From assembly GCA_036253035.1 (NCBI GenBank), contig GCA_036253035.1_4123.1: 64,000 bases of DNA; one strand, 5' to 3'. The number at the start of each line of letters is the position of its first letter. Positions within the stretch are counted from its first letter, which is position 1. Position numbers and translations under genes: made by a program. Positions 2,579 through 42,740 of the stretch are shown one piece after another. The notes beneath the pieces are model-generated. The model made no database searches and was not told the DNA's origin. It worked only from the letters and a program-made list of their open reading frames with translations. Source of the stretch: a phage.

Positions 2579-2755
2579 TTAGTACGAATCAGATTCCCAG
2601 TACTCGATTGCTTCTTTCAGCAATTCTTTAGCACGTTGTTTTGCAATGCGAGCGGGAAACTGATATGTGTACATTAACTGACGCTTCACTTCATTCAGTG
2701 AAAGCTGTTCATGGTACAGTGCATCCATCAGTCGATTACGAGTACGTAGTTTCAT
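2579..2755 (-). CDS. small hypothetical protein (58 aa), not in ORF track
   Basis: MKLRTRNRLMDALYHEQLSLNEVKRQ..; RBS AAGGA 6 nt upstream of ATG. Confidence 0.45.
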   Translation of the reverse strand: MKLRTRNRLMDALYHEQLSLNEVKRQLMYTYQFPARIAKQRAKELLKEAIEYWESDSY

Positions 2756-2766
2756 ATAAGTTATCC

Positions 2767-3321
2767 TTATTTCAAAGAATCATAGTAAGCAGTGTCAAAG
2801 ATTGGAGTCATAATAACATAGTCAATACGGTCAATGTAAGTTGAACTCCACATTTCTGGTTTGTCATATAACTGACGCTCGCGTTCATTCATACGAGTCA
2901 GTACTTCTTCCAATTTACTACGTGAATCCATCAATGTATTACTCGAACCATAAGTGAAGTACTCAGTCCAATGATATTCATATTCAGTACTGATAGATTG
3001 AATAGTACCATCTTTGAAATGAGCTAAGGCATAACCTTTCTCTACAAAGTTATCAGGTGGAAGAACACCATCTGGATTAGTTTTCAAGGCTTGTGCTAAC
3101 TTTTCTTTAATTTCAGTTAACGTGCATACTGAACGAATGTTCTTCAGGTTTGATACTTGAAAATCACTGTACTTTCCAAAGAAAAAGACACGCCAATCTT
3201 TAGGTTCATTATCAGATACGGTAGCATTAGGATGATGGGCGAGTAAACGAAGAAGGCCAGCTTTATGACCGTTAATGTAGATTTCATGGATGTGGTTAGC
3301 AGTTTTCTTAAAAGTAATCAT
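2767..3321 (-). CDS. hypothetical protein
   Basis: minus ORF 184 aa. Confidence 0.6.
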   Translation of the reverse strand: MITFKKTANHIHEIYINGHKAGLLRLLAHHPNATVSDNEPKDWRVFFFGKYSDFQVSNLKNIRSVCTLTEIKEKLAQALKTNPDGVLPPDNFVEKGYALAHFKDGTIQSISTEYEYHWTEYFTYGSSNTLMDSRSKLEEVLTRMNERERQLYDKPEMWSSTYIDRIDYVIMTPIFDTAYYDSLK

Positions 3322-3369
3322 GGTAGTTCCTCGATTGTAGGGATGAGAAGTTCATCCCCCTTGATAAGC

Positions 3370-3397
3370 ATTATACAGTACTGAATGTGTTTGTCAA
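3370..3397 (-). promoter_or_regulatory. sigma-70-type promoter (TTGACA-16-TATAAT)
   Basis: minus strand GTTGACAaacacattcagtactgTATAATG; spacer contains CAGTACTG. Confidence 0.65.
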
Positions 3398-3398
3398 C

Positions 3399-3794
3399 TC
3401 AAAATAAATTCATTTCATGTGCGTATTGTGGTTCAAGATAAGATAAGTTTTTGAAACTGTCTTTCAATTCCGCAGCATCTACGTACACAGTACCAGGTAC
3501 ATTCCCCATAGTGAAGCCAACCCAAACAGTCATGTTTCCAGTTCCTAAGCGGGGCATTGATAGCGTCCCATCAGGTGAAACATCAAACGCTACACTAAAG
3601 TCATCCGTTACAACTTCCGAACCATTTTCCAGAATAATACAACCACGTTCTTTAAGCTTCTGAATGTGGATAGCAGCCTCTACAGCACGTTTAAAGTTAT
3701 AGTAAGACTCTTTATCCTCAAACATAGATTGTTTAACCAGACGCTTGTTTAGCTCGGTTACTTTGTACATTTGTCGCATTATTTCAACACCCAT
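3399..3794 (-). CDS. hypothetical protein
   Basis: minus ORF 131 aa. Confidence 0.55.
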   Translation of the reverse strand: MGVEIMRQMYKVTELNKRLVKQSMFEDKESYYNFKRAVEAAIHIQKLKERGCIILENGSEVVTDDFSVAFDVSPDGTLSMPRLGTGNMTVWVGFTMGNVPGTVYVDAAELKDSFKNLSYLEPQYAHEMNLF

Positions 3795-4033
3795 AGTGGT
3801 AGGATTTCATATGAACCTGGAGGTGCTGGATTGATAATCTCAGGGTATTCAGTACTGTTAGGATTACCACCAGCATTGAACTCAGCAAGTAATAATTCGA
3901 GTTCATTCCTATCATGTACAACAAACACGCAATATCCAGTTCCTTCTTCAAGAACTGTAGTTGACCCCGCACAATCCCATACGGTATCAATACATAATAA
4001 TTCTTTAGTGTTTTTATTACGCAACGCAAACAT
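3779..4033 (-). CDS. hypothetical protein
   Basis: 84 aa; strong RBS AGGAGA before ATG; preferred over alternate-frame ORF 3784..4086. Confidence 0.55.
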   Translation of the reverse strand: MFALRNKNTKELLCIDTVWDCAGSTTVLEEGTGYCVFVVHDRNELELLLAEFNAGGNPNSTEYPEIINPAPPGSYEILPLWVLK

Positions 4034-4042
4034 ATATGTCTC

Positions 4043-4387
4043 CTATCGATTCGGCATATTCGTTCGTAGTCGCAAGAGAAATTCAACCACTGACCATGTT
4101 GTAATGAAGGCTATATAAGTTGCAAGGAATCCAGTAAGAATAAATGCAACCAGCGTACTACCATTTGGGGAATCAGTTTTAATGCCGATGACACCATCGG
4201 CTACAGTGAAACATGTAGCCATTAATGTGTAACCTACGTACAACACAAAGAAAAACTCATTCTCCATTGAAGGATAGAAACGGTTAAACACTTTATAAAA
4301 TTTAAAGTACAGTAGGATTATACCAACAAAGGCATAGAATGTAAACAGTGTTGTTATAATATATGAGATTAGGTTCAAATTATACAT
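4043..4387 (-). CDS. membrane protein, paralog 1 of 3 (4 predicted TM)
   Basis: ATG at 4387 with GGAG RBS (track ORF starts 4411 at GTG); motifs F(K/R)Y.(V/T)L..R.YP and C-terminal R..NxPE(R/K) shared with next two genes. Confidence 0.6.
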   Translation of the reverse strand: MYNLNLISYIITTLFTFYAFVGIILLYFKFYKVFNRFYPSMENEFFFVLYVGYTLMATCFTVADGVIGIKTDSPNGSTLVAFILTGFLATYIAFITTWSVVEFLLRLRTNMPNR

Positions 4388-4388
4388 A

Positions 4389-4730
4389 TCAACGCTCCGG
4401 TAGATTATCACGTAATGTTTTAATTCGATGATACATTTTCATACCAATATTACCAAAGATACCATATCCAAGTACTAAAATGTATGCAATAAGCATAGTA
4501 ATAATTACTATAGTACCAAAACTATAATGTACACTACTGATACCCATTGTAGTTTCAACGATTATTTGAGAAACTGAAAGAATCAAAAGTACAACTACAA
4601 TTGGATGATTTGGGTACATTCGGTTGAACAACGTTTTGTACTTAAAGAAGCACAGTACTCCACCGAATAAGAAGTAAACAATGTAAATGCAAGCAACAGC
4701 ATAGGCAAACATGTTAGTGTAATAAATCAT
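4389..4730 (-). CDS. membrane protein, paralog 2 of 3
   Basis: 113 aa, hydrophobic, shared motifs as above. Confidence 0.6.
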   Translation of the reverse strand: MIYYTNMFAYAVACIYIVYFLFGGVLCFFKYKTLFNRMYPNHPIVVVLLILSVSQIIVETTMGISSVHYSFGTIVIITMLIAYILVLGYGIFGNIGMKMYHRIKTLRDNLPER

Positions 4731-4739
4731 TACAAATCC

Positions 4740-5078
4740 TTACTTTTCAGGGATATTAGAACGCCATATATCAATGCGATGAACTAGTCCAAAGAACAAC
4801 CATACTGGAACGGCAGCTATCATAACAACAAATGAAAACCCAGTCAAGACCGATACCAGATTTAATTCATCAGTACTATACCCACATATCAGTACTTCTA
4901 ATATTCCCCACGTACATGCACAAAACATCAAGAATGAAATTGGGGCATCATAGTAGATACGTTCATATAAAGTAGTGTATCGGAAGAATGCAATAATGTA
5001 GCAAAACATATAATACACCCAAACCAAAGATACTACATAAAATGATACTTTGTTTATTAATTCAAAATATTGTTCCAT
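4740..5078 (-). CDS. membrane protein, paralog 3 of 3
   Basis: 112 aa, hydrophobic, shared motifs as above. Confidence 0.6.
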   Translation of the reverse strand: MEQYFELINKVSFYVVSLVWVYYMFCYIIAFFRYTTLYERIYYDAPISFLMFCACTWGILEVLICGYSTDELNLVSVLTGFSFVVMIAAVPVWLFFGLVHRIDIWRSNIPEK

Positions 5079-5080
5079 TT

Positions 5081-5362
5081 TTACCCCAATATATATTCAG
5101 AGAGTAATGTATTAGCTTCATCTTTGTTCTTAAGGTAATACATGTAATATAGATTCGGTTCACCATCTTTAGCACTCAAATCGAAGTACTTTAAACTATG
5201 TACTTTCATAGTAAAAACAAATAATGGCTTAAAACCAATCTCACCGTACTTAATAAACAGTTCATCCAAATGAATGTAACTTTTTGATTTGGATAATTCT
5301 TTAACGTCTGCATCAATTTCAGATAAAAGATGCTTACCTATTAAGTTTTCAAATGAACGCAT
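5081..5362 (-). CDS. hypothetical protein
   Basis: minus ORF 93 aa. Confidence 0.5.
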   Translation of the reverse strand: MRSFENLIGKHLLSEIDADVKELSKSKSYIHLDELFIKYGEIGFKPLFVFTMKVHSLKYFDLSAKDGEPNLYYMYYLKNKDEANTLLSEYILG

Positions 5363-5423
5363 GATTTTATCCTTTACCGCAATTTTTATGGTTTATTAAG
5401 AATACACCAGAACATCAGTTCTG

Positions 5424-6065
5424 TCAATAAAAAACTGGATCTTCTTCAGTAACTGGTATTTCTCTACGTACATCACACGAAAGAGGATCAGTAATGAATA
5501 CATTGCCATCTTTATCCATCATGACATTACTGGAATGAATGTCTGGTACAAAACGCCCGTGAAACTCTTTCATGATGTTAGCAGCGACCGTCGCAATAGC
5601 AATCTCTTCAGAATTTCCACGCATATCATTCACTGAAGTAGCGTACTGACCAGCATGTGCATACGAATACAAATCACCAATTTTAGTACTAACAAAGTCA
5701 TCATAATTATTTTTTTGTTTAATTATAGGATAGTACTTGTCCATCTCATACCATCCAAAGTTTCCTTGTTCGTTGGCACTGTAGATCACTGGAAGAAACT
5801 TGGTTCCTGCGTTTTCAATGCAGTACTTTGCATAAGCACGAAAACCATCCCAGCGTGAAGTGGTTACTTTAAATGCACGTCCAGGATAGTTTTTATGTTC
5901 AACTACTACAGAGTACATCCCCATTCCAAGCAAAGTAAGTCCAGCAGCTTTAACTTGTGGAAAGATTACGCGTTCAGCATAAGGAATATCAAACTCCATC
6001 GCACAACGAGTTTTTGATGGACGCAAAATGTCAATTAAAGTTTTGAATATTTCTTGCTTAGTCAT
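5424..6065 (-). CDS. protein-kinase-like fold protein (putative Ser/Thr kinase)
   Basis: Gly-rich loop LGMGMYSVV, AFKV lysine motif, catalytic-loop-like DIHSSNVMMD, ITD; probable start ATG 6065 with AGGA RBS (track start 6098). Confidence 0.5.
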   Translation of the reverse strand: MTKQEIFKTLIDILRPSKTRCAMEFDIPYAERVIFPQVKAAGLTLLGMGMYSVVVEHKNYPGRAFKVTTSRWDGFRAYAKYCIENAGTKFLPVIYSANEQGNFGWYEMDKYYPIIKQKNNYDDFVSTKIGDLYSYAHAGQYATSVNDMRGNSEEIAIATVAANIMKEFHGRFVPDIHSSNVMMDKDGNVFITDPLSCDVRREIPVTEEDPVFY

Positions 6066-6101
6066 TACTTTATCCTCTGTAGTTAATATCAACATCATAA
6101 C

Positions 6102-6126
6102 AAAAAAGGCTGACCGAAGTCAACCC
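6102..6126 (-). terminator. rho-independent terminator, conserved UUCG hairpin
   Basis: aaaaaaGGCTGACCGAAGTCAACC. Confidence 0.8.
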
Positions 6127-6134
6127 TTTTATTA

Positions 6135-6554
6135 TCATTTACAGTTTTCTATAACTATTGCACGTTTTAGTATTTTACTTTCATAAACATACTTAAGATG
6201 ACCTTCTTCACGAATACGATTGAACACATATCCTAGTTTATCTTTTAGTACTGAAGCGGTATCAATGTCAAGATTAACTTCAACCCCTCCTGTTAATTTA
6301 ACTTTATATGTAAAGCTAAAAGCATCACCAGATTCAACCAATGGGACTACTTGTTCATACGTATTCAACATAACTCGTTCATCATTAACTAAATTATATA
6401 TTACAATATCACAAGTTTTTACCCCAATTTCCTCTAAGGTAGGAGCATTGTCTACTATAACATCTTTTACTGTATTAGCAACCTGTTTAGCATCTGCTGC
6501 ATATACATTAAAACTAAGAAGTACTAAAATAATACTTAAAAAAATCTTTTTCAT
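6135..6554 (-). CDS. secreted protein (signal peptide)
   Basis: 139 aa; MKKIFLSIILVLLSFNVYA|AD. Confidence 0.6.
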   Translation of the reverse strand: MKKIFLSIILVLLSFNVYAADAKQVANTVKDVIVDNAPTLEEIGVKTCDIVIYNLVNDERVMLNTYEQVVPLVESGDAFSFTYKVKLTGGVEVNLDIDTASVLKDKLGYVFNRIREEGHLKYVYESKILKRAIVIENCK

Positions 6555-6563
6555 TATATATCC

Positions 6564-6887
6564 TTATTTTATTTTACACGTCATATCGGGTTGTGCTGGT
6601 TTATTATTTTTAAAAGGATTAGGTTTTTTATCTTTCTTTTTATCTTTTAATGGTTTTTTGTCTTCTTTTTTATCTTTGTCTTTTTTATTGGTATCAGATT
6701 CAGTTGGAGTATTACATTGTGCTGGTGATGGGTTTGTTGGGTTACAGCTATTGTCTGGTGGGAGTTTTACTTCTTTACAATTGTAAAATAGTAAACTTTT
6801 ATTTGTGGTTAAATTATGAAAACGATAATTTATTTCATTATTATAATAAATTTTTTTAGTACTTTCAATGTCATTACACATTGCCAC
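6564..6887 (-). CDS. hypothetical Lys/Asp-rich low-complexity protein
   Basis: 107 aa, KDKDKKEDKKP repeats. Confidence 0.4.
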   Translation of the reverse strand: MAMCNDIESTKKIYYNNEINYRFHNLTTNKSLLFYNCKEVKLPPDNSCNPTNPSPAQCNTPTESDTNKKDKDKKEDKKPLKDKKKDKKPNPFKNNKPAQPDMTCKIK

Positions 6888-6891
6888 GGAA

Positions 6892-7143
6892 TCACCGAAA
6901 CTCTTTTTCTATTCCGAGTACATCCGTCTTACGCTCAGATAGTATACCTGAAGTATATGAATCTTTGTTGTCAAACGCATTAAATCCAATAGTTCTGTCG
7001 GTGTCGTGTATTATTCCTTTTGTGTATGAGGTAGTATAGAACTCCCCATTTCTGAAATCCTGCCTTGCTACGGAGCAATGATAATCTGCACCATAAGCAG
7101 TACTGGAAAATAATACAATTCCAAATATAATATATTTTTTCAT
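6892..7143 (-). CDS. secreted protein (signal peptide)
   Basis: 83 aa; MKKYIIFGIVLFSSTAYGA. Confidence 0.55.
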   Translation of the reverse strand: MKKYIIFGIVLFSSTAYGADYHCSVARQDFRNGEFYTTSYTKGIIHDTDRTIGFNAFDNKDSYTSGILSERKTDVLGIEKEFR

Positions 7144-7177
7144 TGTAATCCTCTTCTTAATTCCTCTTTTGTATTTA

Positions 7178-7202
7178 CAAAAAAAGGCTGACCGAAGTCA
7201 AC
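7178..7202 (-). terminator. rho-independent terminator, conserved UUCG hairpin
   Basis: aaaaaaaGGCTGACCGAAGTCAACC. Confidence 0.8.
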
Positions 7203-7213
7203 CTTTAGTTTTA

Positions 7214-8767
7214 TCATTTACCGTATTTGCTCATGATGTCCTTTTCCCAATGAGTTACGTTACCGTTATCGTAATCTTTAAAGGAATTATCAAGAGTAGT
7301 TAATGCATATTCGTATGCTTCAGGTGATTCAATGTCAACATCATCAGCACCATTTACTAAATCAGTCCATGCTTTTTGTAGTTTACGAGCATTTTTACCA
7401 ACATTACTTTTAATCCAACTAATGTTTTTGTTGATACTCTTATTATCAGCACCAGCTTTTTTACCAATATCGGATATCCACATCATTAGCTTTTGGAGTT
7501 CATGAATGGAGTTGTCGTTCATTTCACGATCTTTAGCCAATTCTGCTTCCATGCCATCAGTATCAGTACCATCTTTAGAACCTACATCAATTCCATGTTT
7601 AGCTAATAGTTTACCAAGTTCAAAGAATGCTGCCTCAGCAGGGAAGTCATAACCTTTGTCTTTGTAGTTGTTCCATGCACTATCAAACTCATCTACAAAT
7701 CGGTTGGCATAATCTGGATTGTCCACGAGAGCTTTGTACACTGCCATTGCATGTTCAAATCCTTCTTTGTCAGAACCAAACTCTCCCATTTCTGGACGAT
7801 GAATGTAACCATCCATATCAACAGTATCAGGTAAATCATCATGAGATGTTTCAGCATCTTTCTGGTCAACTGCACCTTCTTCATCATCACGCATCAGATA
7901 ACCATCTCGTGTAACCTTCTCACCGTGATCAGCTTCATACTTTTTCATAGTATTGAATGCAGCATCCATTGCAGTTACAAAACGACTCTTTTCACCTTGT
8001 ACATAAGATTTAAGTGCATCGTTAACTGCATCAGATACTAATTTAATCTTATCGTCTTTACCTTCCAGACGGTTTTCTAACTTAGCTAGTACATTCTTAA
8101 CTTGTTGAGCATTAGCACGGTCTTCTTTACCAATACTATCAAATGTTTTAAGTACGCTTTCAAGACTTACTTCCTCTTGTGCAGGCACATCACCTTGTTG
8201 CGTACCTTCAAGTGCACGCATTATAGTACTGAATACTTCAGTTGGTTCAGTACTGGTATTTCCACTCATTGCATCAAGTACAGCTTGTGCTTTGACTTTT
8301 AATTCTTCTTTAGGTACAGATTGCAATTCTTTCACAATACCTTGGATAAGTTGTGGTTTATTAGCAAAAATCTTACCTAACTTATCAGACAATTCTTTGA
8401 CAGGGTTAACCGCCTTTGGTGCTTCTTGTTTTGGTTCTTCTTTCGCAGGAGAAGACTTTTCTTTTTCTTCACGTTCCATATCAGCTAGGCGTTGTTTTTG
8501 TGTAGCATTAAGAAGTCCCAATGAATTAACATAACGTAGCTTTTCTAGCTCAGTCATGTTCTCAGTACTCTTAACTTCACCTGCTTCTGCGTTTGCTTTA
8601 CCAGCTAGACCAGTTCCTTGGTTACGTGATCCACGTGAACCTTGACCTGCTTGATAACTATTTGGTCGGCGGTTGCGTTCACTCCATTTATCCGAGTGAC
8701 CAGCCATGTTACCACCATTTTTATCAGTAAAATTACTTGGCATTTGATTTCTCTCCATAGATTTCAT
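7214..8767 (-). CDS. large hydrophilic protein, unknown function
   Basis: 517 aa, acidic/coiled; shares KYLxSLGLL motif with 9014..9397; TATAAATA-like motif about 25 nt upstream. Confidence 0.7.
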   Translation of the reverse strand: MKSMERNQMPSNFTDKNGGNMAGHSDKWSERNRRPNSYQAGQGSRGSRNQGTGLAGKANAEAGEVKSTENMTELEKLRYVNSLGLLNATQKQRLADMEREEKEKSSPAKEEPKQEAPKAVNPVKELSDKLGKIFANKPQLIQGIVKELQSVPKEELKVKAQAVLDAMSGNTSTEPTEVFSTIMRALEGTQQGDVPAQEEVSLESVLKTFDSIGKEDRANAQQVKNVLAKLENRLEGKDDKIKLVSDAVNDALKSYVQGEKSRFVTAMDAAFNTMKKYEADHGEKVTRDGYLMRDDEEGAVDQKDAETSHDDLPDTVDMDGYIHRPEMGEFGSDKEGFEHAMAVYKALVDNPDYANRFVDEFDSAWNNYKDKGYDFPAEAAFFELGKLLAKHGIDVGSKDGTDTDGMEAELAKDREMNDNSIHELQKLMMWISDIGKKAGADNKSINKNISWIKSNVGKNARKLQKAWTDLVNGADDVDIESPEAYEYALTTLDNSFKDYDNGNVTHWEKDIMSKYGK

Positions 8768-8798
8768 TTTTTTCTCTATGTCTATATTTATAGTATAA

Positions 8799-8822
8799 AG
8801 AAAAGGCTGACCGAAGTCAACC
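8799..8822 (-). terminator. rho-independent terminator, conserved UUCG hairpin
   Basis: gaaaaGGCTGACCGAAGTCAACC. Confidence 0.75.
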
Positions 8823-8830
8823 TTATTTTG

Positions 8831-8944
8831 TTACTTAGATTGTTCTTGTGCAGGTGGATTTACTTTTTGATCCACTACATAGAATACACCACCAACCAGT
8901 ACTGCGGCGATGAGTGCAGCAACTACAAATTTCAAACCTTGCAT
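8831..8944 (-). CDS. small membrane peptide (37 aa), not in ORF track
   Basis: MQGLKFVVAALIAAVLVGGVFYVVDQK..; RBS GAGGT; bracketed by two terminators. Confidence 0.45.
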   Translation of the reverse strand: MQGLKFVVAALIAAVLVGGVFYVVDQKVNPPAQEQSK

Positions 8945-8980
8945 ATATGATACCTCAGTTATATTGAGAAGTTATGATAC

Positions 8981-9006
8981 AACAAAGGGCTGACCTTAGT
9001 CAACCC
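8981..9006 (-). terminator. rho-independent terminator, variant of conserved hairpin
   Basis: GGGCTGACCTTAGTCAACCCC with flanking A/T runs. Confidence 0.7.
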
Positions 9007-9013
9007 CTTTTTA

Positions 9014-9397: not shown

Positions 9398-9475
9398 TTT
9401 TATAACTCCTATAAGAGATAAATTTTACTATAATATTTATAGTTCCGTTGTCATTTATATCGAATGACATAAAAC

Positions 9476-9503: not shown

Positions 9504-9512
9504 AAAGTTAAA

Positions 9513-12224: not shown

Positions 12225-12248
12225 AAAAAAGGCTGACCGAAGTCAACC
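12225..12248 (-). terminator. rho-independent terminator, conserved UUCG hairpin
   Basis: aaaaaaGGCTGACCGAAGTCAACC; stop codon of 12243..12434 embedded in hairpin. Confidence 0.75.
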
Positions 12249-15581: not shown

Positions 15582-16093
15582 ATATTAAGTAGTTCCATAA
15601 ATTCATCGATCAAGGAAGTTCTAATGCACATAACAAATTCAAAATCAACATCGATAGTATCGAGTAGTTTGAACAACTTTGGTACATTTGGATCATTCAA
15701 CTGGAAGTTATGAATCAAGCTCTGTTGAAACACACTTTCTTCAGTACTGTAATCAATAACAAAATATTCAGCTACACCTGGAGGTGAATAAACATCATAT
15801 AATATCTGACGTTTATTGTGTGTTTCTGAACCAGGACAATATATAAGTTCTATTTCATACGAACCTGCCGAGGATCTATCATAAAACACAATTTCAGTAC
15901 TGATTATTTCACTACCATCACTTCGTTCATGAAAACATACATCGGCATATCGTTTGCCATTTGGCTTCAAAATCTCATGAGTTGTTTTACCATAACATTT
16001 ATCAGTTTCAATGTGAATTTTGTCTTGATATTCAGAACGTCTTACATCATTTCCACGATTAAACAATAAGATCAACAACTCATTAATATCCAT
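15578..16093 (-). CDS. EExxFQxS-motif family protein (outlying member)
   Basis: 171 aa; YSTEESVFQQSLIHNF. Confidence 0.6.
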   Translation of the reverse strand: MDINELLILLFNRGNDVRRSEYQDKIHIETDKCYGKTTHEILKPNGKRYADVCFHERSDGSEIISTEIVFYDRSSAGSYEIELIYCPGSETHNKRQILYDVYSPPGVAEYFVIDYSTEESVFQQSLIHNFQLNDPNVPKLFKLLDTIDVDFEFVMCIRTSLIDEFMELLNI

Positions 16094-16293
16094 TATTTCG
16101 CCTCGATAACCTTAAGGTTAACAAAATCACCTTTTACTTTCATGCATTTGAATTCAGTGCGAGTTTCATCCCCACTATCGCGAGGCCAATGAGTAGCAGA
16201 GTAGCACTGGTCTGGTGTTTTATATACACCTTCACCAATAGTACGAGTGATTTCACCATTGGTGAGAACTACTGCGAGATATAAAGTAAACAT
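16093..16293 (-). CDS. hypothetical protein
   Basis: track ORF 16093..16350; ATG 16293 with AAGG RBS. Confidence 0.45.
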   Translation of the reverse strand: MFTLYLAVVLTNGEITRTIGEGVYKTPDQCYSATHWPRDSGDETRTEFKCMKVKGDFVNLKVIEAK

Positions 16294-16303
16294 GATATTC
16301 GCC

Positions 16304-16450
16304 TTAGAATAATTTATTAATAATAATAGCACCCAACGCAAGAACTGCAATAATTACAGATACCCACATTACTGCATTCACTGTACCAGTTAGTTCTTTA
16401 TCAAACTCCCTGCACTTCTTACGGTACTCTTCCCACTCTTTGTTATTCAC
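16304..16450 (-). CDS. small C-terminal-TM peptide (48 aa, GTG start), not in ORF track
   Basis: AGGAG 7 nt before GTG; ..VNAVMWVSVIIAVLALGAIIINKLF. Confidence 0.35.
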   Translation of the reverse strand: MNNKEWEEYRKKCREFDKELTGTVNAVMWVSVIIAVLALGAIIINKLF

Positions 16451-18895: not shown

Positions 18896-19105
18896 TTATT
18901 CTTTCTCACCAACAAACAGTTTAACTTTTGTATTACTGTTATAACACCACATCTGTTCTTTGTTAATAGACATCCAGATATTTTTATTGACCTGTTCGTA
19001 GGTACTATCACGAACAGAAATACATTGATTCATGGAATTCATTGGAGTGATTTGTACACCGCTTTGCATGGAAAGAGCTACTACTAAAAAGATTACTGAA
19101 TTCAT
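18896..19105 (-). CDS. small secreted protein
   Basis: 69 aa; signal-peptide-like N-terminus. Confidence 0.5.
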   Translation of the reverse strand: MNSVIFLVVALSMQSGVQITPMNSMNQCISVRDSTYEQVNKNIWMSINKEQMWCYNSNTKVKLFVGEKE

Positions 19106-27858: not shown

Positions 27859-28062
27859 TTACAACTCCTTACGTATTACTCGTCCGGTAAGATGTTCATC
27901 TGTACAGAACTTCATTATAAATGCTTTTAGATGGAAGTCTTCTAAAATTCTATATGCTTGCGTTTTCATAACGACTTCCTTCTTCTCCACATCAACAATT
28001 ATATCATGTTTCTCGTGAAGTTCCTGGATCATTTGATATGAATTCAAACTTAGTACGCTCAT
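27859..28062 (-). CDS. hypothetical protein
   Basis: track ORF 27859..28071 (TTG); ATG 28062; overlaps next gene by ~59 nt. Confidence 0.4.
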   Translation of the reverse strand: MSVLSLNSYQMIQELHEKHDIIVDVEKKEVVMKTQAYRILEDFHLKAFIMKFCTDEHLTGRVIRKEL

Positions 28063-32093: not shown

Positions 32094-32194
<101 letters not shown>

Positions 32195-32249
32195 GCCAAG
32201 TGTCGGCATAGGTGCAGCACTACAAAGTACTTCAAGCTGTTTGGCAGTC

Positions 32250-32336
<87 letters not shown>

Positions 32337-33932: not shown

Positions 33933-33936
<4 letters not shown>
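33908..33936 (-). promoter_or_regulatory. sigma-70-type promoter (TTGACT-17-TATAAT)
   Basis: plus attata(33908-33913)..agtcaa(33931-33936). Confidence 0.6.
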
Positions 33937-34355: not shown

Positions 34356-34517
<162 letters not shown>

Positions 34518-34521
<4 letters not shown>

Positions 34522-34678
34522 AATCGTACCAGTAGTTCAATTAAGTACATTTCATATGCTGGATCGTTGATAAGTTTATCATACAGATGTGGCTCTGAAA
34601 TGAATTCCCAATGATACTTTAGCCATCTACCGATACCCGAATATCTAAAATTAATGTCATTCATCCATTCTTCATGTG

Positions 34679-34682
<4 letters not shown>
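34518..34682 (-). CDS. MTHEEW-family mini-protein (54 aa), copy 2
   Basis: MTHEEWMNDINFRYSGIGRW..; ATGA overlap with copy 1. Confidence 0.5.
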
Positions 34683-34843
<161 letters not shown>

Positions 34844-35514: not shown

Positions 35515-35515
35515 T

Positions 35516-35851
<336 letters not shown>

Positions 35852-35856
35852 TCTTA

Positions 35857-36033
35857 CTATTTTTTATCTCTAATAGCAAGCTCGTAGATGAACCAGTGGT
35901 TGGAATCTTCGTCCAAAACCAATGATTCGAACGTTTTTTTATCGTTCAAAACATCATAATGGCCTTGGCGTATACCAAATCCAAAATGATCATGTTTATA
36001 TTTTAGTGACTCTATCCATTCTTCATGTGTCAT
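35857..36033 (-). CDS. MTHEEW-family mini-protein
   Basis: MTHEEWIESLKYKHDHFGFGIRQGHYDVL.. Confidence 0.5.
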   Translation of the reverse strand: MTHEEWIESLKYKHDHFGFGIRQGHYDVLNDKKTFESLVLDEDSNHWFIYELAIRDKK

Positions 36034-36111
36034 TTTATGTATCCAGTTCAATTAAGTGTTTCATTTATTCTTCTGTAAAGAAAGCATTGCAATGGACAAT
36101 GGAAAAGGTTA

Positions 36112-36291
36112 TTATATTTTTTTGTCTCTAACCGCAAGCTCATAGATGAACCAACGATTTCCATTCTCATCTAGTACATATGATTCGAACTTATATTTGT
36201 CTCGTAAAATATCGAAATGACCATCAATAAATCCATTTCCAAACTGGTCATAACGTTTTTTCATCATTGCCATCCATTCTTCATGTGTCAT
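36112..36291 (-). CDS. MTHEEW-family mini-protein (59 aa), not in ORF track
   Basis: MTHEEWMAMMKKRYDQFGNGFIDGHFDIL.. Confidence 0.45.
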   Translation of the reverse strand: MTHEEWMAMMKKRYDQFGNGFIDGHFDILRDKYKFESYVLDENGNRWFIYELAVRDKKI

Positions 36292-36867: not shown

Positions 36868-37367
36868 TTCGACCCCTTACTATATTTCACGTATGGGTTA
36901 TCATACAGATCATAACTTTTTTGTGCACGTTCTTTTCGGCGTTCATACATGATTCTATCATACTCTTTAGCTTTCTGATTTGCTTCATTATACAATTTTA
37001 AAATTAGCAAAAATGCATCAAGATCGGGATAGTTTGCCGGATTGATAGTACTCAGCATAAATCGTTCTTCTTCAGTTCTAGCTAAGTCAAATTCATACTT
37101 AATAGTTTTATACCCACTCCATTTATATATATGCGTTACTTTATTAGTAAGTACATTATATTCAACGAAGTCAGTACTACCATCAAGTACACGAGTAATC
37201 TTAATAGATGTACCAATGACAATCTGCACAGAACTCATTTCTGAAGTTTTAAAGTAATAAATGTTATTACGGCGAAGATTAACTTCTCGATCTCCAATGC
37301 GAACATGCTTAATAACTTCCATTAATGGTTCTGGGACACCACGAATCGGCATGTTAGTATTCCTCAA
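36864..37367 (-). CDS. EExxFQxS-motif family protein (with extended C-terminus)
   Basis: 167 aa; TEEERFMLSTINPA. Confidence 0.6.
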   Translation of the reverse strand: MRNTNMPIRGVPEPLMEVIKHVRIGDREVNLRRNNIYYFKTSEMSSVQIVIGTSIKITRVLDGSTDFVEYNVLTNKVTHIYKWSGYKTIKYEFDLARTEEERFMLSTINPANYPDLDAFLLILKLYNEANQKAKEYDRIMYERRKERAQKSYDLYDNPYVKYSKGSK

Positions 37368-37923
37368 TAACGGTTAGGAATCTATCCCAACCAGTATAAG
37401 TGAAATGATCAAAGTATTGTTTTTCGCCACCTACCATATATACTTCAATTAAACCGTGGTCGAAATAATTTTTTGGTTTTTTAACTTCAGTTACGATTGC
37501 TTTATGTCTGAAACCATTATAATCAGTATATGTTACAATATCGTGAATTTTGATATTATCAGGTGTATAAGTGTTGGCGTTATTATTGAGAACATGAAGA
37601 TGATGGTCTACGATTTCTTTACTGGAAATTACTCCAAATATGTTACCAGAAAATACTTTATTACCATTACAGGTCAATGCCCAGCCATCACCAACTTCAA
37701 TAGATTCAAATACATAATGTGTGCAAATTTTAGATACATCTGACGTATCCCAGTAATCACCATCAAGATTGGTGAATTTATAAACAGTTTTGAGTTTTTC
37801 GCCATCAAATGAAAGCAATGATACTCCGATAACAACCGTTCCGTCTTCAAGAATAATATTAAATTTATTATTTGTATTAAAATATGCTTCTGACTCATAT
37901 GTGTTGAATTTAATAAAGTTCAT
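37354..37923 (-). CDS. hypothetical protein
   Basis: minus ORF 189 aa. Confidence 0.6.
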   Translation of the reverse strand: MNFIKFNTYESEAYFNTNNKFNIILEDGTVVIGVSLLSFDGEKLKTVYKFTNLDGDYWDTSDVSKICTHYVFESIEVGDGWALTCNGNKVFSGNIFGVISSKEIVDHHLHVLNNNANTYTPDNIKIHDIVTYTDYNGFRHKAIVTEVKKPKNYFDHGLIEVYMVGGEKQYFDHFTYTGWDRFLTVIEEY

Positions 37924-37970
37924 ATGTTCTCCTTAGTAAGTCATAGTATTATATCAGAGTTTCATTGCAC

Positions 37971-38363
37971 TTACCAGCATGTTTTCATAACTTCTGTGAT
38001 GTAAATCATTTTATCTTTTAGTGTGTAAGGGATGCAAATTTCACCTGGGCTTAACGTTGTGTTCTTTTGAAACTCATCTTCTTCGGAATCAGCCAGGTAA
38101 AATGGGTGTGTCACAAAGGTATCATCAACTGGACGATTATGTGGTTTCATTAATGCATCATGATTGACAAAATAATAAGCATCAATATCAGGACGGAAAT
38201 ACAAACAATCAACCTTAATGCACGGGTGTAACCATAAGGACAAAGAATATGTTATTTGGTTACCAATTTGTCTTGGGCCTGATGCAATTGTATTGATGTT
38301 ATTTTTATCTTGTACCATTTCATAAATGAAATCTATCATTTCGTGTAGTTCTGATTCAGTCAT
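37971..38363 (-). CDS. EExxFQxS-motif family protein (divergent)
   Basis: 130 aa; SEEDEFQKNTTLSP. Confidence 0.55.
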   Translation of the reverse strand: MTESELHEMIDFIYEMVQDKNNINTIASGPRQIGNQITYSLSLWLHPCIKVDCLYFRPDIDAYYFVNHDALMKPHNRPVDDTFVTHPFYLADSEEDEFQKNTTLSPGEICIPYTLKDKMIYITEVMKTCW

Positions 38364-38373
38364 TTTATTTCCT

Positions 38374-38410
38374 TAAAAAAATACCCAGTACTTGACTGGG
38401 TATTTACAAA
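38374..38410 (-). terminator. rho-independent terminator
   Basis: ATACCCAGTacttgACTGGGTAT flanked by A run (plus) giving U run on minus transcript. Confidence 0.7.
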
Positions 38411-38417
38411 GTAACGT

Positions 38418-38567
38418 TTAATCAGATTTCTTTTCGTAATCTGTAAAAACAGTCAGGATTGTTGCACATAGTGAATCAACTACTGATGCACGTGTGTTAT
38501 CAAGGTCTTTAGCTAGTGCTTGAATCTCTTGAAGTTTTACTACTAAGTCGATTTTTTGATTACTCAT
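38418..38567 (-). CDS. small hypothetical protein (49 aa), not in ORF track
   Basis: MSNQKIDLVVKLQEIQALAKDL..; RBS AGGAGAAGTAATG. Confidence 0.45.
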   Translation of the reverse strand: MSNQKIDLVVKLQEIQALAKDLDNTRASVVDSLCATILTVFTDYEKKSD

Positions 38568-38589
38568 TACTTCTCCTATTGGATGTTTT

Positions 38590-38880
38590 TTAGATATTAA
38601 TTTTTATACCACTAAGGTCTAGAACTTTTTTATTAGATACTGTTTCTGATTCTAATTTAGTTTCTTTTACCTCAGTGTTAATATTTACGTCATCTTTGAG
38701 AATATCAGGGATAATACCATGTTGAATATCATCGTACATAGAAACAACGGTTTCGGCACAAGATAACATTTCACGAACTTTGTACTGATAACCCTGTGGT
38801 AACTCATTGATGATTTCCATAATATCTAGTAATTTAGTTTGGACATCAATAAGAATTTTTCTTGATTTTTCTGGTTCCAT
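38590..38880 (-). CDS. hypothetical protein
   Basis: minus ORF 96 aa. Confidence 0.55.
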   Translation of the reverse strand: MEPEKSRKILIDVQTKLLDIMEIINELPQGYQYKVREMLSCAETVVSMYDDIQHGIIPDILKDDVNINTEVKETKLESETVSNKKVLDLSGIKINI

Positions 38881-39386
38881 TACTCCAACTCCACAACATT
38901 ACTTTTTTTGGATTTAATCACTGATGGTGGCTCATTAACGCTTGTTTGACCACGAAGTGATTTTTCCAACGCAATGATGCGTTTTAAAGTTTTTATTGAT
39001 GGTCGCTTCTTCGTCAACTCAGCTTTTGCTTCTGAATAATATTTTCTTACATATCCATAGGCATAATATTTTGAACCAATGAAAATTTCAGCAACTACTG
39101 GATTTGAGTATTGTGTATCAATTCCATCTAGATCCGTGTCTACCGAGTAGAATGAAATATTTGTATCACATGCTGAAATTTTAGCCACCAAAAGATTTGC
39201 ATCGAACTTATCTAAAATTAGAGAAATTGTTTTTTCGGCATCAGCACTATATGGCATAGCAGACATTAAAAGTTGGAATGTCTTAAAGTACTTACTTCCA
39301 CTAATCATGGTATTGAAAATCAATCCAATGGTGATTAATGCAAGTGTACCAATACACACAAACAAAAACCAATATTCAACACTCAT
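38880..39386 (-). CDS. hypothetical protein with N-terminal TM helix
   Basis: minus ORF 168 aa. Confidence 0.6.
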   Translation of the reverse strand: MSVEYWFLFVCIGTLALITIGLIFNTMISGSKYFKTFQLLMSAMPYSADAEKTISLILDKFDANLLVAKISACDTNISFYSVDTDLDGIDTQYSNPVVAEIFIGSKYYAYGYVRKYYSEAKAELTKKRPSIKTLKRIIALEKSLRGQTSVNEPPSVIKSKKSNVVELE

Positions 39387-39451
39387 TTATAAATCCTCTT
39401 ACTTTATATGATTAAAATGCCCCATCAAAAATGATGAGGCGGTAAGATAAA

Positions 39452-39661
39452 TTACTTACGATTTGCTTTACGCAGTTCAGATAGTTCTTCTTGAAGACTT
39501 TTCTTCCATGCAATCAAGTGAGCAAAACGGATTGGCCTTGCACCAGTACCGTGGAATACTGCTAGAGCTTCTTCTGCTTGATGAATCTGGAATTGAATGT
39601 AGTTCACAGTGCGGTCGAAGTCGGTGATATCTAGTACTTGTGCGTTAGTTTCTTTAGCCAT
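39452..39661 (-). CDS. hypothetical protein
   Basis: minus ORF 69 aa. Confidence 0.5.
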   Translation of the reverse strand: MAKETNAQVLDITDFDRTVNYIQFQIHQAEEALAVFHGTGARPIRFAHLIAWKKSLQEELSELRKANRK

Positions 39662-39744
39662 TTTAATACCCTTTTATTTCTTTTTTATGAAAAACCCTCA
39701 TCATTGAGGAATGGTTTGCATTTTAATATCTGCCGATAACAAAC

Positions 39745-39772
39745 ATTATATCACAATATCTGTTCTTGTCCA
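39745..39772 (-). promoter_or_regulatory. promoter, extended -10 TGTGATATAAT with TGGACA -35
   Basis: plus attata(39745-39750), tcaca, tgtcca(39767-39772). Confidence 0.55.
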
Positions 39773-39776
39773 ATTT

Positions 39777-40073
39777 TTAATTATTAGAAAGAACAATTTT
39801 TGAAACTGGTAAATCTGTATCATTTACACGTTGTTCATTATATCCATTCTGTACAAGAATGTCAATAACTTTAGACTTATCAATTGTAAATGATTCTAAC
39901 ATATCATATCGGTAATAACCAATAGTCTGACTGAACTCATATTTTCCTGGCTGTTGACGACAACACGTATTTGTTTCAGCCATAATCTTATTGATTAGGT
40001 AATATGTTTCAGTACTATCAATATTTGGAATATAGATCTTATCATCAAAATGAATTACTTCATGTTTATTCAT
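39777..40073 (-). CDS. hypothetical protein
   Basis: track ORF 39777..40136; ATG 40073. Confidence 0.45.
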   Translation of the reverse strand: MNKHEVIHFDDKIYIPNIDSTETYYLINKIMAETNTCCRQQPGKYEFSQTIGYYRYDMLESFTIDKSKVIDILVQNGYNEQRVNDTDLPVSKIVLSNN

Positions 40074-40335
40074 AGAGTGATTCAATCTCCGCTTTAAGAA
40101 TGGAAATGATCTCTTTCTGAAGACCAGTAATTTCACTGTTCAAAGATGATAGTCGCTTTGATAATGCCATGAATTGCTTTGCATCTTCTTTAGAACGGTC
40201 ATTTCGTACTTTATCAGAACTCCAGTTAGCATATGATTGCTCATCTTTCCTGTTAAGGATATCCCAGTCTAAACGTACTAGTTTACGTTCTTTCTTCAGT
40301 TCGCTTAAGCGAGATTTCATTTCGTCTTTAGTCAT
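40066..40335 (-). CDS. hypothetical coiled-coil protein
   Basis: minus ORF 89 aa. Confidence 0.5.
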   Translation of the reverse strand: MTKDEMKSRLSELKKERKLVRLDWDILNRKDEQSYANWSSDKVRNDRSKEDAKQFMALSKRLSSLNSEITGLQKEIISILKAEIESLYE

Positions 40336-40625
40336 TAGATTGTTCCTTTCATGAAGTCTGGAATAACGATTACGATAGGAGGATTATACTCTACATAACC
40401 ATTTTTTGTCAATAGACTTTTAATATCTGAAATCACATTATCATGCTGTTCAATATCTTTGTCACAAAAGATTTCCAATTCTTTCTGAAACGGTTTTTTA
40501 ACCGAGATGTTTTGAGTCAGTGTTTGGATTCTCTGTAACATATCAATTGGATCTGGACTAAACTCATTACCAACATAAAGAGTACCAGATGCATCTTTTT
40601 CTAGCAAGACTTCTAAAATTTTCAT
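40335..40625 (-). CDS. hypothetical protein
   Basis: minus ORF 96 aa. Confidence 0.5.
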   Translation of the reverse strand: MKILEVLLEKDASGTLYVGNEFSPDPIDMLQRIQTLTQNISVKKPFQKELEIFCDKDIEQHDNVISDIKSLLTKNGYVEYNPPIVIVIPDFMKGTI

Positions 40626-41458
40626 TTCGTATCCTTCAATTTACTAAAGTTTTCTCGTGTAAATCCAGGAACTGGAAAATATACATCACAGTCAACATCA
40701 GGATTCATAATTACCATGTCATTACATATTATATCACGAATTTTACTGCCGTCCACGATTTTTTGCATTAAATCATTCCATTTTTTACGAGAAATAACGA
40801 ATGTACTAATTATACATAAATCATGTCCACGTTTTGAAATATATCCTAGTACTTCATTATCGTAAACAACACGTATGGTAACTTTTCCAATTGTAACCCC
40901 TCTTACTGGATTAATACTAGTATCTTCAAAAATTAATTCTAATTTAAGTTTACCATTCGAAATAAGTGATGAAGTATATTTAGAAACCATTTTATCAATT
41001 TCTTGAGTTAAATCATCTCTACCTAGATATTCAAATACAGAATAAGTTAATTCGTCTGCATCTAACTGTTGGATAGTTGGAAGCTGTGCAACCATATCTA
41101 AAGATACAGGTTCGATATATATTCTTTCAATATCAGAAGATTGTACAAATAGACAACCATCAGGTGTCGTATCTCTAACAATTTCGGCATAATATGTATA
41201 AAGATAAAAAACATTAGACTCTGATGAGTCAGTTTCTACCCAAATCTCAGATTGTTTCATTTCATCTTTATGAAGAATTCGTTGAGTAAATCCTATGTAA
41301 AAACCAAGATATAAATCATCATCAGTTTCAAACGGATTAAACATCAAATACGGATATTTGTCAAGGTACTCATTGAACTTACGCTGTACATCTCTATCAC
41401 AATCCATGATATACTTTCGGAATTCAGAAATGATTATTTTTTCTAATGACATAATCAA
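40622..41458 (-). CDS. hypothetical protein
   Basis: minus ORF 278 aa. Confidence 0.65.
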   Translation of the reverse strand: MIMSLEKIIISEFRKYIMDCDRDVQRKFNEYLDKYPYLMFNPFETDDDLYLGFYIGFTQRILHKDEMKQSEIWVETDSSESNVFYLYTYYAEIVRDTTPDGCLFVQSSDIERIYIEPVSLDMVAQLPTIQQLDADELTYSVFEYLGRDDLTQEIDKMVSKYTSSLISNGKLKLELIFEDTSINPVRGVTIGKVTIRVVYDNEVLGYISKRGHDLCIISTFVISRKKWNDLMQKIVDGSKIRDIICNDMVIMNPDVDCDVYFPVPGFTRENFSKLKDTK

Positions 41459-41652
41459 TCCTCAAGATGCATGTAGTACATAAACATCGCCAACCATATA
41501 AAAAACCCGAAACAACGAAGTAAAATATCAATTGTTGGATCTGTCCCACCATTAACTTGGTAAACGATTACTGGGATTAAAGCAATAGTAATAGACACAG
41601 CACATAAGATGAATGCAACAAACACCTCAAACATAAACTTAATCGTTTCCAT
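41455..41652 (-). CDS. small membrane protein
   Basis: 65 aa, two TM helices. Confidence 0.5.
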   Translation of the reverse strand: METIKFMFEVFVAFILCAVSITIALIPVIVYQVNGGTDPTIDILLRCFGFFIWLAMFMYYMHLED

Positions 41653-42211
41653 TATTATCCTTCAATGTGTAGTGTAGTACATCTAAAAAGTTATACATTG
41701 ATTCATTACGCACAACCTTGATTGTTAAATTACGACAACCCAACATACGTTTGAGGCGACGCTTCACCGCAGTTAAATCATGTGTACTATTCGTATACAG
41801 ACCATTAACCTGACCTGGAACAGTTGGCACATGAAGAATGTAATCATAATTCATTAGTAAGCGTTGATTATATTTCTTTAATGCTTGCTTGTATTCTGAA
41901 ATATTTTCAAAGAATGTACAATAACGGTCGTAACGATTCATTTTATTCAAAATTGAAATACGAAAAGCGTCACCACTATTCCAATCATCTTCAGTTGGGT
42001 TTGGGTTGATATGTGCCATGTTAGCTGTACTGTACCCACCACTTGTGAAAACTTCAGAATATCCATTCTCAAAAACATACAATGTTGCTTTGTGGCCTCG
42101 GAATTCTTTACGGTACTTTGACAGTACTTGAATGTGATTACGCTTGGACTTGTACATCTCGTAACCTTCATAATCTGAACTGAATTCACAAATTTTATCA
42201 ACACCAGCCAT
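41639..42211 (-). CDS. hypothetical protein
   Basis: minus ORF 190 aa. Confidence 0.6.
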   Translation of the reverse strand: MAGVDKICEFSSDYEGYEMYKSKRNHIQVLSKYRKEFRGHKATLYVFENGYSEVFTSGGYSTANMAHINPNPTEDDWNSGDAFRISILNKMNRYDRYCTFFENISEYKQALKKYNQRLLMNYDYILHVPTVPGQVNGLYTNSTHDLTAVKRRLKRMLGCRNLTIKVVRNESMYNFLDVLHYTLKDNNGND

Positions 42212-42243
42212 TTCGTATATCCTCGTTTAATTAATATAGGAGT

Positions 42244-42272
42244 ATTATATATACTCCATTTTCATGTGTCAA
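42244..42272 (-). promoter_or_regulatory. sigma-70-type promoter (TTGACA-17-TATAAT)
   Basis: plus attata(42244-42249)..tgtcaa(42267-42272). Confidence 0.6.
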
Positions 42273-42411
42273 GCTTTATAATACGGAAGACTTTTTACTA
42301 AAGATTCAGACGTATTATTTTTTACCCATGTACTACCGTTATCATTAGATACGTATCCAGTACCATTAATAAATTTACGCATAATACCAGTAAAAATATT
42401 AGTATACACCA

Positions 42412-42609
42412 TTACTCAGTATCCTTTGGTTTAGAATGTAAACCATACTTTTCATCATAACGATCATAGGTAGTACCATTAGTACTAGCTTTGATGCTTT
42501 CAGTACGATTGATTGGTTCAATCTTAACACCACGATAACCAATCTCTTCTTTAAATTGTTCCCATGATTCACGTAAACTCATTTTAGCCCCTTTTGTTAT
42601 TTCATACAC
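42412..42609 (-). CDS. hypothetical protein
   Basis: minus ORF 65 aa. Confidence 0.45.
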   Translation of the reverse strand: MYEITKGAKMSLRESWEQFKEEIGYRGVKIEPINRTESIKASTNGTTYDRYDEKYGLHSKPKDTE

Positions 42610-42740
42610 TCACGTAGGTCAATCTTTTCTACTGACCCACCGAGCACTAGATAGTGAAAATTAGAATCTTTGTTTGCCATATTCAAAAGATCTGCTTTCT
42701 GTTGAAGCGTAAAGCGTGAAGTACTGTTACGTACTGGCAT
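42597..42740 (-). CDS. small hypothetical protein (47 aa), not in ORF track
   Basis: MPVRNSTSRFTLQQKADLLNMANKD..; strong RBS AAGGAG. Confidence 0.45.
   Translation of the reverse strand: MPVRNSTSRFTLQQKADLLNMANKDSNFHYLVLGGSVEKIDLRECMK

Follow-up and report, generated by a model that had tools for sequence, protein, structure and literature searches.

Five short open reading frames (ORFs) located between the longer genes of a jumbo phage are very probably genuine small accessory genes of Asteriusvirus, lying in the early region, transcribed from sigma70-type promoters and translated from Shine-Dalgarno (SD) sites. They were studied in a 64,000-nucleotide (nt) stretch of DNA, contig GCA_036253035.1_4123.1 of assembly GCA_036253035.1, referred to below, at its full length, as the window. 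The window is AT-rich, with a GC content of ~33%, and nearly all of its long ORFs are on the minus strand. Megablast places it among the jumbo coliphages of the 121Q/PBECO4/G17/slurp01 group (genus Asteriusvirus, Rak2-like), with 95-99% nucleotide identity to 121Q, PBECO4, G17 and slurp01 over most of its length. The coordinates of the five ORFs come from an initial annotation, which gave no strand and described them as plausible genes with good ribosome-binding sites filling otherwise empty gaps. All five are present exactly at those positions, and all are on the minus strand (lengths in amino acids, aa):

ORF1: 2579-2755, minus strand; 58 aa, ATG start, SD AAGGA with a spacing of 8 nt
ORF2: 8831-8944, minus strand; 37 aa, ATG start, SD GAGG with a spacing of 8 nt
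ORF3: 16304-16450, minus strand; 48 aa, GTG start, SD AGGAG with a spacing of 7 nt
ORF4: 38418-38567, minus strand; 49 aa, ATG start, SD AGGAG with a spacing of 5 nt
ORF5: 42597-42740, minus strand; 47 aa, ATG start, SD AGGAG with a spacing of 5 nt

Each ORF therefore has its ribosome-binding site 5-8 nt upstream, as had been proposed, and each occupies the space between its neighbours. ORF3 seems to overlap the ORF at 16093-16350 by 47 nt, but this overlap is not real: the RefSeq record of 121Q annotates the downstream gene as 201 nt, matching a start at the ATG at window position 16293.

As a set, the five ORFs exceed chance expectation. A codon-usage log-odds score trained on the 41 ORFs of at least 150 aa in the window ranges from 0.18 to 0.39 for the five, compared with a maximum of 0.128 among 199 shadow ORFs of 30-59 aa and a mean of 0.28 for fragments of real genes, within whose range all five fall. 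An SD sequence precedes 12 of these 199 shadow ORFs versus 34 of the 41 long genes. When the gaps were shuffled, an ORF of equal or greater length with an SD arose in 13-17 of 5000 trials for ORF1, ORF3, ORF4 and ORF5, and in 155 of 5000 for ORF2.

All five have counterparts among the annotated coding sequences (CDS) of 121Q (NC_025447): gp213 (177 nt) for ORF1, gp200 (114 nt) for ORF2, gp179 (147 nt) for ORF3, gp109 (150 nt) for ORF4 and gp97 (144 nt) for ORF5. Boundaries are identical and the neighbouring genes are the same, with conserved synteny and 90-100% amino-acid identity. A tblastn search of the peptides against 50,697 phage records recovered each ORF in 20-42 Asteriusvirus-like records, and in most records carrying a given ORF a "hypothetical protein" feature covers it. 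Each product also belongs to a PHROG family of unknown function (phrog_38182, phrog_35037, phrog_38271, phrog_22175 and phrog_26722 for ORF1 to ORF5, respectively), and the matches are full length, from the first to the last residue of both protein and profile (hmmscan E 2e-29 to 5e-45). The suggestion that automated annotation typically overlooks such short genes is not borne out by these five: they were unlisted at the first stage because of that stage's own 60-aa display cutoff. They are already known as hypothetical proteins in RefSeq and in PHROGs, and the finding is correct but ordinary.

Comparative analysis covered the syntenic ~40 kb of JNE01, Turkey5, TH47 (a record marked UNVERIFIED), A4, UE-S1 and 121Q and, for ORF1, also the loci of EJP2, Munch, fENko-Kae01 and Erwinia phage Hallingskeid. 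All intact homologs retain the start codon, an SD and the frame, and they differ in length by whole codons; the only length difference that is not a multiple of three is a 1-nt deletion in ORF3 of UE-S1. For ORF1, ORF3, ORF4 and ORF5, a synonymous excess (Nei-Gojobori) is observed in the proposed frame only, with ratios of nonsynonymous to synonymous divergence (dN/dS) of ~0.02-0.2 and Fisher p values of about 1e-3 to 1e-10 (the weakest, 7e-3, being for ORF5). The five alternative frames contain 1-12 stops each; the one exception is an antisense frame of ORF3, in which two comparisons show no stop. Variable sites at the first, second and third codon positions number 4/3/20 in ORF3 and 10/5/26 in ORF5 (chi-square p 4e-5 and 1.5e-4). 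Individual comparisons illustrate the strength of the signal:

ORF1 versus UE-S1: dS 0.72, dN 0.07, p = 9e-8
ORF3 versus A4: 18 synonymous and 6 nonsynonymous changes, dN/dS 0.05, p = 2e-10
ORF4 versus UE-S1: dN/dS 0.13, p = 4e-6
ORF5 versus A4: 12 synonymous and 1 nonsynonymous changes, p = 1e-8
ORF5 versus Turkey5: dN/dS 0.06, p = 4e-10

Judged by these alignments, ORF1, ORF3, ORF4 and ORF5 are demonstrably coding, because the synonymous excess is frame-specific, the alternative frames are closed and variability is concentrated at third positions. The initial annotation had called all five plausible genes and had pointed to conservation of frame in relatives as a check. The frame is indeed conserved, with the exceptions of the UE-S1 deletion in ORF3, the loss of ORF1 in TH47 and the absence of ORF3 from JNE01 and Turkey5. 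Selection strongly favours gene status for these four, and for ORF2 the proposal is reasonable on intrinsic evidence.

Several observations weigh against the view that all five are genuine genes. ORF1 is mostly deleted in TH47, and its relative in SD-1_S14 is fused or truncated (102 aa). ORF3 and its neighbours are absent from JNE01 and Turkey5, and in UE-S1 (L014 30459-30595) a 1-nt deletion in an A-run shifts the ORF3 frame after about codon 10. The remaining 38 codons of the UE-S1 copy are open and conserved, and the UE-S1 record annotates no CDS there; the frameshift would be either a sequencing error or a recent pseudogene. ORF4 compared with TH47 gives a dN/dS of ~0.96, based on only 13 changes (3 synonymous and 10 nonsynonymous) and on the UNVERIFIED record; the cause could be selection that is locally relaxed or diversifying, or mistakes in that record. 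ORF2 occurs in only 20 records versus 34-42 for the other four, and its cassette is at least 98.6% nucleotide-identical in all 20. The ORF2 homolog of phage phAPEC6, gp036c, was not detected in the virion proteome of that phage (PMC7247149). The losses and disruptions of ORF1 and ORF3 and the restricted occurrence of ORF2 indicate that several of the ORFs are dispensable in some lineages. In addition, searches of Pfam and PDB sequences, Foldseek and a profile search of 1.84 billion proteins assigned no function to any of the five; no Pfam family reached its cutoff, and phmmer and hmmsearch against PDB sequences returned nothing relevant. The literature searched held no ribosome profiling or infected-cell proteomics for the five ORFs.

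ORF2 is the least secure of the five. On either side of it is a virion structural gene (the homologs of 121Q gp199 and gp201), and purifying selection on it cannot be shown because its copies are almost without divergence. A tblastn search of the 50,697 phage records revealed no diverged homolog, and a scan of IMG/VR anchored on the neighbouring gene gp199 was set aside, as it returned only 121Q and no added diversity. An alternative explanation is that the two late virion genes are separated, over the interval 8768-9013, by a duplicated terminator/promoter spacer in which a 37-codon frame is open by chance. The near-identity of all 20 copies leaves selection without the divergence needed to act as a test of this possibility, the shuffled ORF2 gap yields an equally long SD-preceded ORF with a chance of 3%, which is not negligible, and the SP27 record leaves ORF2 unannotated. 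The proteomic result is of the same tenor: both neighbours of gp036c, gp035c and gp037c, were detected in the phAPEC6 virion (PMC7247149), so that there is no sign of ORF2 as a virion component. We nevertheless regard a chance frame as unlikely. The codon score of ORF2, 0.390, is the best of the five and above both the mean of real-gene fragments and all 199 shadow ORFs. The SD GAGG lies 8 nt upstream, and further upstream there is a sigma70-like promoter with a TG-extended -10. The GC content of ORF2 is 40% versus ~33-36% in the surrounding window. Its product shows a clean 19-residue hydrophobic helix (transmembrane (TM) residues 6-24, Kyte-Doolittle 19-residue maximum 2.75) followed by a polar C-terminal tail, and is predicted to be a single-pass membrane peptide. 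The sole difference between ORF2 and its 121Q counterpart is synonymous, and in Turkey5 and JNE01 this slot holds other tiny TM ORFs behind a promoter. ORF2 is thus probably a gene, on the intrinsic evidence of codon usage, SD, its own promoter and the TM helix.

For the short ORFs in general, the clustering of substitutions at third codon positions of the proposed frame makes it very improbable that they are conserved for the sake of overlapping non-coding functions (RNA structure, promoters or antisense genes) and not for the proteins they encode. The region is promoter-dense, with some promoters inside coding sequence, and pS also exceeds pN in rev1, the antisense frame with the same wobble positions, as a non-coding constraint might produce. 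However, all five alternative frames, antisense included, hold stops in nearly every comparison, indels are in-frame with SD and start conserved, and ORF1 retains protein similarity to EJP2 (50-58% identity) although synonymous sites are saturated. The notion that the five are decaying fragments of once larger genes, still open by default, is scarcely more credible: disrupted or fused versions do exist (the ORF3 frameshift of UE-S1, the 102-aa relative of ORF1 in SD-1_S14 and the TH47 deletion), but start, stop and length are the same across many genomes, and for ORF1 across genera, dN/dS is far below 1, and family members in the profile search of 1.84 billion proteins are nearly all stand-alone proteins of 58-67 aa rather than parts of larger ones.

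Given that the five ORFs are best regarded as genes, their products can be assigned to a few simple classes. ORF1, whose SD AAGGA (2768-2764) overlaps the stop codon of the upstream gene, encodes a soluble, basic protein annotated in ~40 records, with homologs at 50-58% identity in EJP2, Munch, fENko-Kae01 and Erwinia phage Hallingskeid and a dN/dS of 0.09-0.15 (p 1e-3 to 4e-8). Its AlphaFold2 (AF2) model is a three-helix bundle with helices at residues 3-14, 20-31 and 35-57 (mean predicted local distance difference test score, pLDDT, 86.5). The family comprises 28 clusters in a collection of 5.8 billion proteins and 11 representatives among 1.84 billion. In both collections its members are almost all stand-alone proteins of ~58-84 aa; those from the 1.84-billion search are nearly all of 58-67 aa, with one 102-aa protein and one 31-aa fragment. 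The source phages, where named, are Rak2-like jumbo phages. Fold searches with Foldseek gave no significant match (best E 5.4 against PDB and 0.77 against BFVD). A helix-turn-helix assignment was rejected: the best Pfam match, Clr5, scored 14.7 bits, under its 22.3-bit cutoff, neither Foldseek search supported it, and a profile search of PDB returned nothing relevant. A palindrome downstream of ORF1, ACGTGA-TATG-TCACGT, was also dropped, being no more stable than shuffles (z = -0.5).

The GTG start of ORF3 overlaps the TGA stop of the upstream gene as GTGA, an arrangement that would be typical of translational coupling, and this GTG is conserved in 121Q, A4, TH47 and UE-S1. The dN/dS of ORF3 versus 121Q is 0.10, and TH47 differs by an in-frame deletion of one codon. 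The product has a charged N-terminus of 25 aa followed by TM residues 26-44 (Kyte-Doolittle 19-residue maximum 2.84) and is predicted to be a tail-anchored membrane protein. ORF2 and ORF3 both show one ~19-residue hydrophobic segment of high hydropathy with flanking charges, as expected for single-pass proteins; the corresponding Kyte-Doolittle maximum is at most 0.95 for ORF1, ORF4 and ORF5.

ORF4 encodes a soluble, mildly acidic protein that is helical by composition only. Its frame is conserved in UE-S1, TH47, A4, JNE01 and Turkey5 with one in-frame difference of two codons, and in relatives other than TH47 its dN/dS is 0.13-0.20 (p 7e-5 to 3e-9). It is the last gene ahead of an intrinsic terminator:

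Terminator after ORF4: 38374-38405, minus strand; hairpin AAAUACCCAGU-CAAGU-ACUGGGUAUUU followed by a U-run, -15.7 kcal/mol, z = -3.65

This terminator was missed by a consensus terminator scan, probably since its stem runs into the T-run; it was revealed by RNA folding and by the UE-S1 record, which annotates a terminator at the homologous place. ORF5, whose SD (AAGGAG) sits within the end of the upstream gene, heads three consecutive tiny genes (gp97, gp98 and gp99). Its product is soluble, with a dN/dS of 0.02-0.09 (p 7e-3 to 4e-10); the AF2 model, a helix plus a beta-hairpin, is weak (pLDDT 67), too weak for a fold search. ORF5 is restricted to Asteriusvirus. No relatives of ORF4 or ORF5 beyond the genus were detected by tblastn of phage records or by PDB sequence searches.

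The ORF2 locus has a distinctive architecture. Two copies of a hairpin of the form GGTTGAC-NNNN-GTCAGCC flank the ORF, each as part of a hairpin-promoter module:

Upstream module of the ORF2 cassette: 8974-9005, minus strand; GGTTGACTAAGGTCAGCC hairpin, -35 TTGACT within the stem, 18-nt spacer, -10 TATCAT
Downstream module of the ORF2 cassette: 8785-8824, minus strand; AAGGTTGACTTCGGTCAGCCTT hairpin with a C(UUCG)G loop, T-run, TATACT

The upstream RNA hairpin has a stability of -17.0 kcal/mol (z = -4.4) and the downstream one of -12.4 kcal/mol (z = -4.8), the latter scoring as terminator-like. For these hairpins, which are followed by a T-run, 0 of 200 shuffles were as stable; they are predicted to be able to act as terminators. 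The G17 record annotates two terminators under this stretch. The downstream module overlaps a T4-late-type TATAAATA (at 8792) preceding the virion gene 7214-8767. On the minus strand of the window TATAAATA has only two matches, 8785-8792 and 9434-9441, both directly upstream of virion structural genes (the gp201 and gp199 homologs). Its placement agrees with the late motif, ATAAATA, that has been described for CBB and GAP32 (PMC5259590).

The module is not confined to this locus. The exact 18-mer GGTTGACTTCGGTCAGCC, when up to three mismatches are allowed, has seven copies in the window versus 0.02 expected, all on the gene strand:

Copies of GGTTGACTTCGGTCAGCC: 655-672, 1199-1216, 6108-6125, 7186-7203, 8805-8822, 8988-9005 and 12231-12248, minus strand

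In the common layout, a stop codon and then an A-rich tract precede the hairpin, which is followed by a T-run, by TGnTATAAT or something close to it and, ~25 nt further on, by the SD and ATG of the next gene. The -35 TTGACT forms part of the 5' arm of the stem and is separated from the -10 by 18 nt. A sigma70-like promoter is recognisable in six of the seven copies (TTGACT-N17/18-TATAAT, TATGAT, TATACT or TATCAT, mostly with TG before the -10); the seventh, at 7186-7203, lacks a distinct -10. Across Rak2-like phages the module matches 3-18 places per genome, and it is also found in CBB, Yersinia fHe-Yen9-04 and Klebsiella, Erwinia and Serratia jumbo phages. The minus strand of the window contains 35 near-consensus sigma70 promoters in all (TTGAC[AT]-N16-18-TAnnnT), for example at 33936, 33476, 18328, 17980, 14019 and 3397. 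In a subset of these the spacer is conserved and ends in ...TCAGTACTG(T)ATAAT, suggestive of a second class of repeated promoter.

The interval between the gp199 and gp201 homologs (window 8768-9013) is a variable slot. It is occupied by ORF2 in the window and in 121Q, and has a different content in other close relatives:

UE-S1: L014 37451-37515; slot empty, 65 nt, with a single module
Turkey5: L007 36139-36481; two unrelated tiny TM ORFs of 25 and 28 aa, promoter TTGACA-N17-TACAAT
JNE01: L006 38666-39228; a 101-aa signal-peptide protein and the same 28-aa TM ORF
TH47: L008 7582-8891; a 394-aa zinc-ribbon repeat ORF, GIY-YIG/T5orf172-like by eye only

The 25- and 28-aa TM ORFs are unannotated in the Turkey5 and JNE01 records. 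A second break in homology is found near the window's start. Homology with 121Q, G17 and most other relatives ends at 622-633, reported as lying inside the module at 655-672, and only Turkey3 (95%) and WPEC5 (83.5%) have the greater part of positions 1-620 in common with the window. The cargo downstream of this module appears to have been swapped, because homology with most relatives stops there. More generally, 25 of 134 breakpoints of window-specific stretches lie within 60 nt of a sigma70-like promoter versus 9.6 ± 2.9 expected; this test is crude, since breakpoints shared among relatives are non-independent and diverged genes are also counted as "stretches".

These observations suggest how the five genes may be used by the phage. 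They lie in what would be the early region, among densely packed short genes, and are most likely transcribed by the host sigma70 RNA polymerase from the many near-consensus promoters of the minus strand. Translation would proceed via canonical SD sites, with ORF3 coupled to the gene before it. ORF1 would be a cytoplasmic three-helix bundle conserved across Rak2-like phages, ORF2 a 37-aa single-pass peptide of the inner membrane expressed from its own promoter as a monocistronic cassette, ORF3 a tail-anchored membrane protein, and ORF4 and ORF5 small soluble proteins found only within the genus. Early small phage proteins commonly modulate the host or superinfection without being essential, and non-essential modulation of this kind, acting on the host, its envelope or superinfection, would be the most likely role of the five products. 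We infer both the early timing of expression and these roles. In the related phage CBB, short hypothetical genes that the authors suspected to be early share a region with a cluster of RpoD-like promoters (PMC5259590).

The five ORFs are part of a larger population of very short genes. Across the matching span, 121Q annotates 19 CDS of less than 60 aa, of which ORF1-5 represent five. Mapping of the 121Q annotation onto the window shows that 14 of the 19 are intact; a crude gap-based small-ORF caller was set aside in favour of this mapping, as some of its calls were fragments of larger genes. The list given by the initial annotation, all of whose members are real ORFs, is thus incomplete. Other intact minus-strand ORFs of less than 60 aa, at 42269-42582, 32153-32266, 27859-27990 and 18896-19033, correspond to gp98, gp99, gp139, gp152 and gp168 of 121Q. 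There is also a tandem family of five paralogous minus-strand genes of 54-59 aa, all starting with MTHEEW (34357-34843, 35857-36033 and 36112-36291), which correspond to gp125, gp126, gp127 and gp118 of 121Q plus one extra copy in the window, and all of which fall under the 60-aa cutoff. In this type of genome a display cutoff at 60 aa hides real genes, at least 14 annotated ones rather than five. Compared with the small genes of 121Q there is no substantive difference, apart from a few amino-acid substitutions in ORF3 and ORF5, and the window represents another isolate of the same phage group. What the present analysis adds is a quantification of purifying selection for four ORFs and, for three products, an assignment to simple structural types: two membrane peptides and one three-helix bundle.

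Small single-pass membrane proteins include, for example, the early superinfection-exclusion proteins of T4 as well as bacterial small membrane regulators and toxins. ORF2 and ORF3 resemble these in their size (37-48 aa), in their single hydrophobic segment of ~19 residues and in their short charged flank. They differ in having no sequence or profile similarity to named families (PHROG, Pfam).

The architecture around ORF2, the only mildly novel element of the analysis, invites comparison with the PeSLs (promoter early stem-loops) of T4-type phages. PeSLs are composite elements in which a sigma70 promoter and a stem-loop terminator occur in repeated form, followed by an SD and start; they flank ORFans, and recombination between PeSL copies, which can give rise to mini-circles, mediates insertions, deletions and replacements. 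They have been described in RB49/phi1, T4/PST and KVP40/nt-1 (Arbiol et al. 2010, PMC2839356; Comeau et al. 2014, PMC4122927). The module of the window likewise recurs between genes and combines a stable stem-loop with a near-consensus sigma70 promoter, after which come the SD and start codon of the following gene; the small ORFan ORF2 has a copy on either side; and in close relatives the slot is empty or carries unrelated cargo, with homology breaking at modules. By analogy, recombination would take place at the modules. We tentatively propose, at somewhat short of even confidence, that a PeSL-like system of mobile regulatory cassettes operates in Rak2-like jumbo phages, with ORF2 as cargo. 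The combination of GGTTGACTTCGGTCAGCC, T-run and TATAAT would then be a portable recombination site for the insertion, deletion and swapping of promoter-equipped tiny genes, which would work even between late virion genes and through which the slot would have repeatedly captured unrelated membrane peptides of 25-37 aa. These peptides could act in superinfection exclusion or in modulation of the host membrane.

The likeness has its limits. The -35 of the module is embedded in the stem, whereas in a PeSL the stem-loop is separate and upstream of the promoter (Comeau et al. 2014, PMC4122927), and we speak of a PeSL-like element rather than a PeSL because the -35 hexamer lies in the 5' arm of the stem. 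The stem itself is GGTTGAC/GTCAGCC with a UUCG loop, in contrast to the G-run/C-run stem of PeSLs. Moreover, PeSLs were defined in T4-like myoviruses, whereas the host of the module is a Rak2-like jumbo phage, and one cassette, that of ORF2, separates two late virion genes instead of belonging to a classical hyperplastic region. The searchable literature yielded no description of such elements for Asteriusvirus. A PeSL-like module marking points of exchange in Asteriusvirus and other Rak2-like phages would extend the mechanism of genome plasticity known from T4-type phages to this group of jumbo phages.

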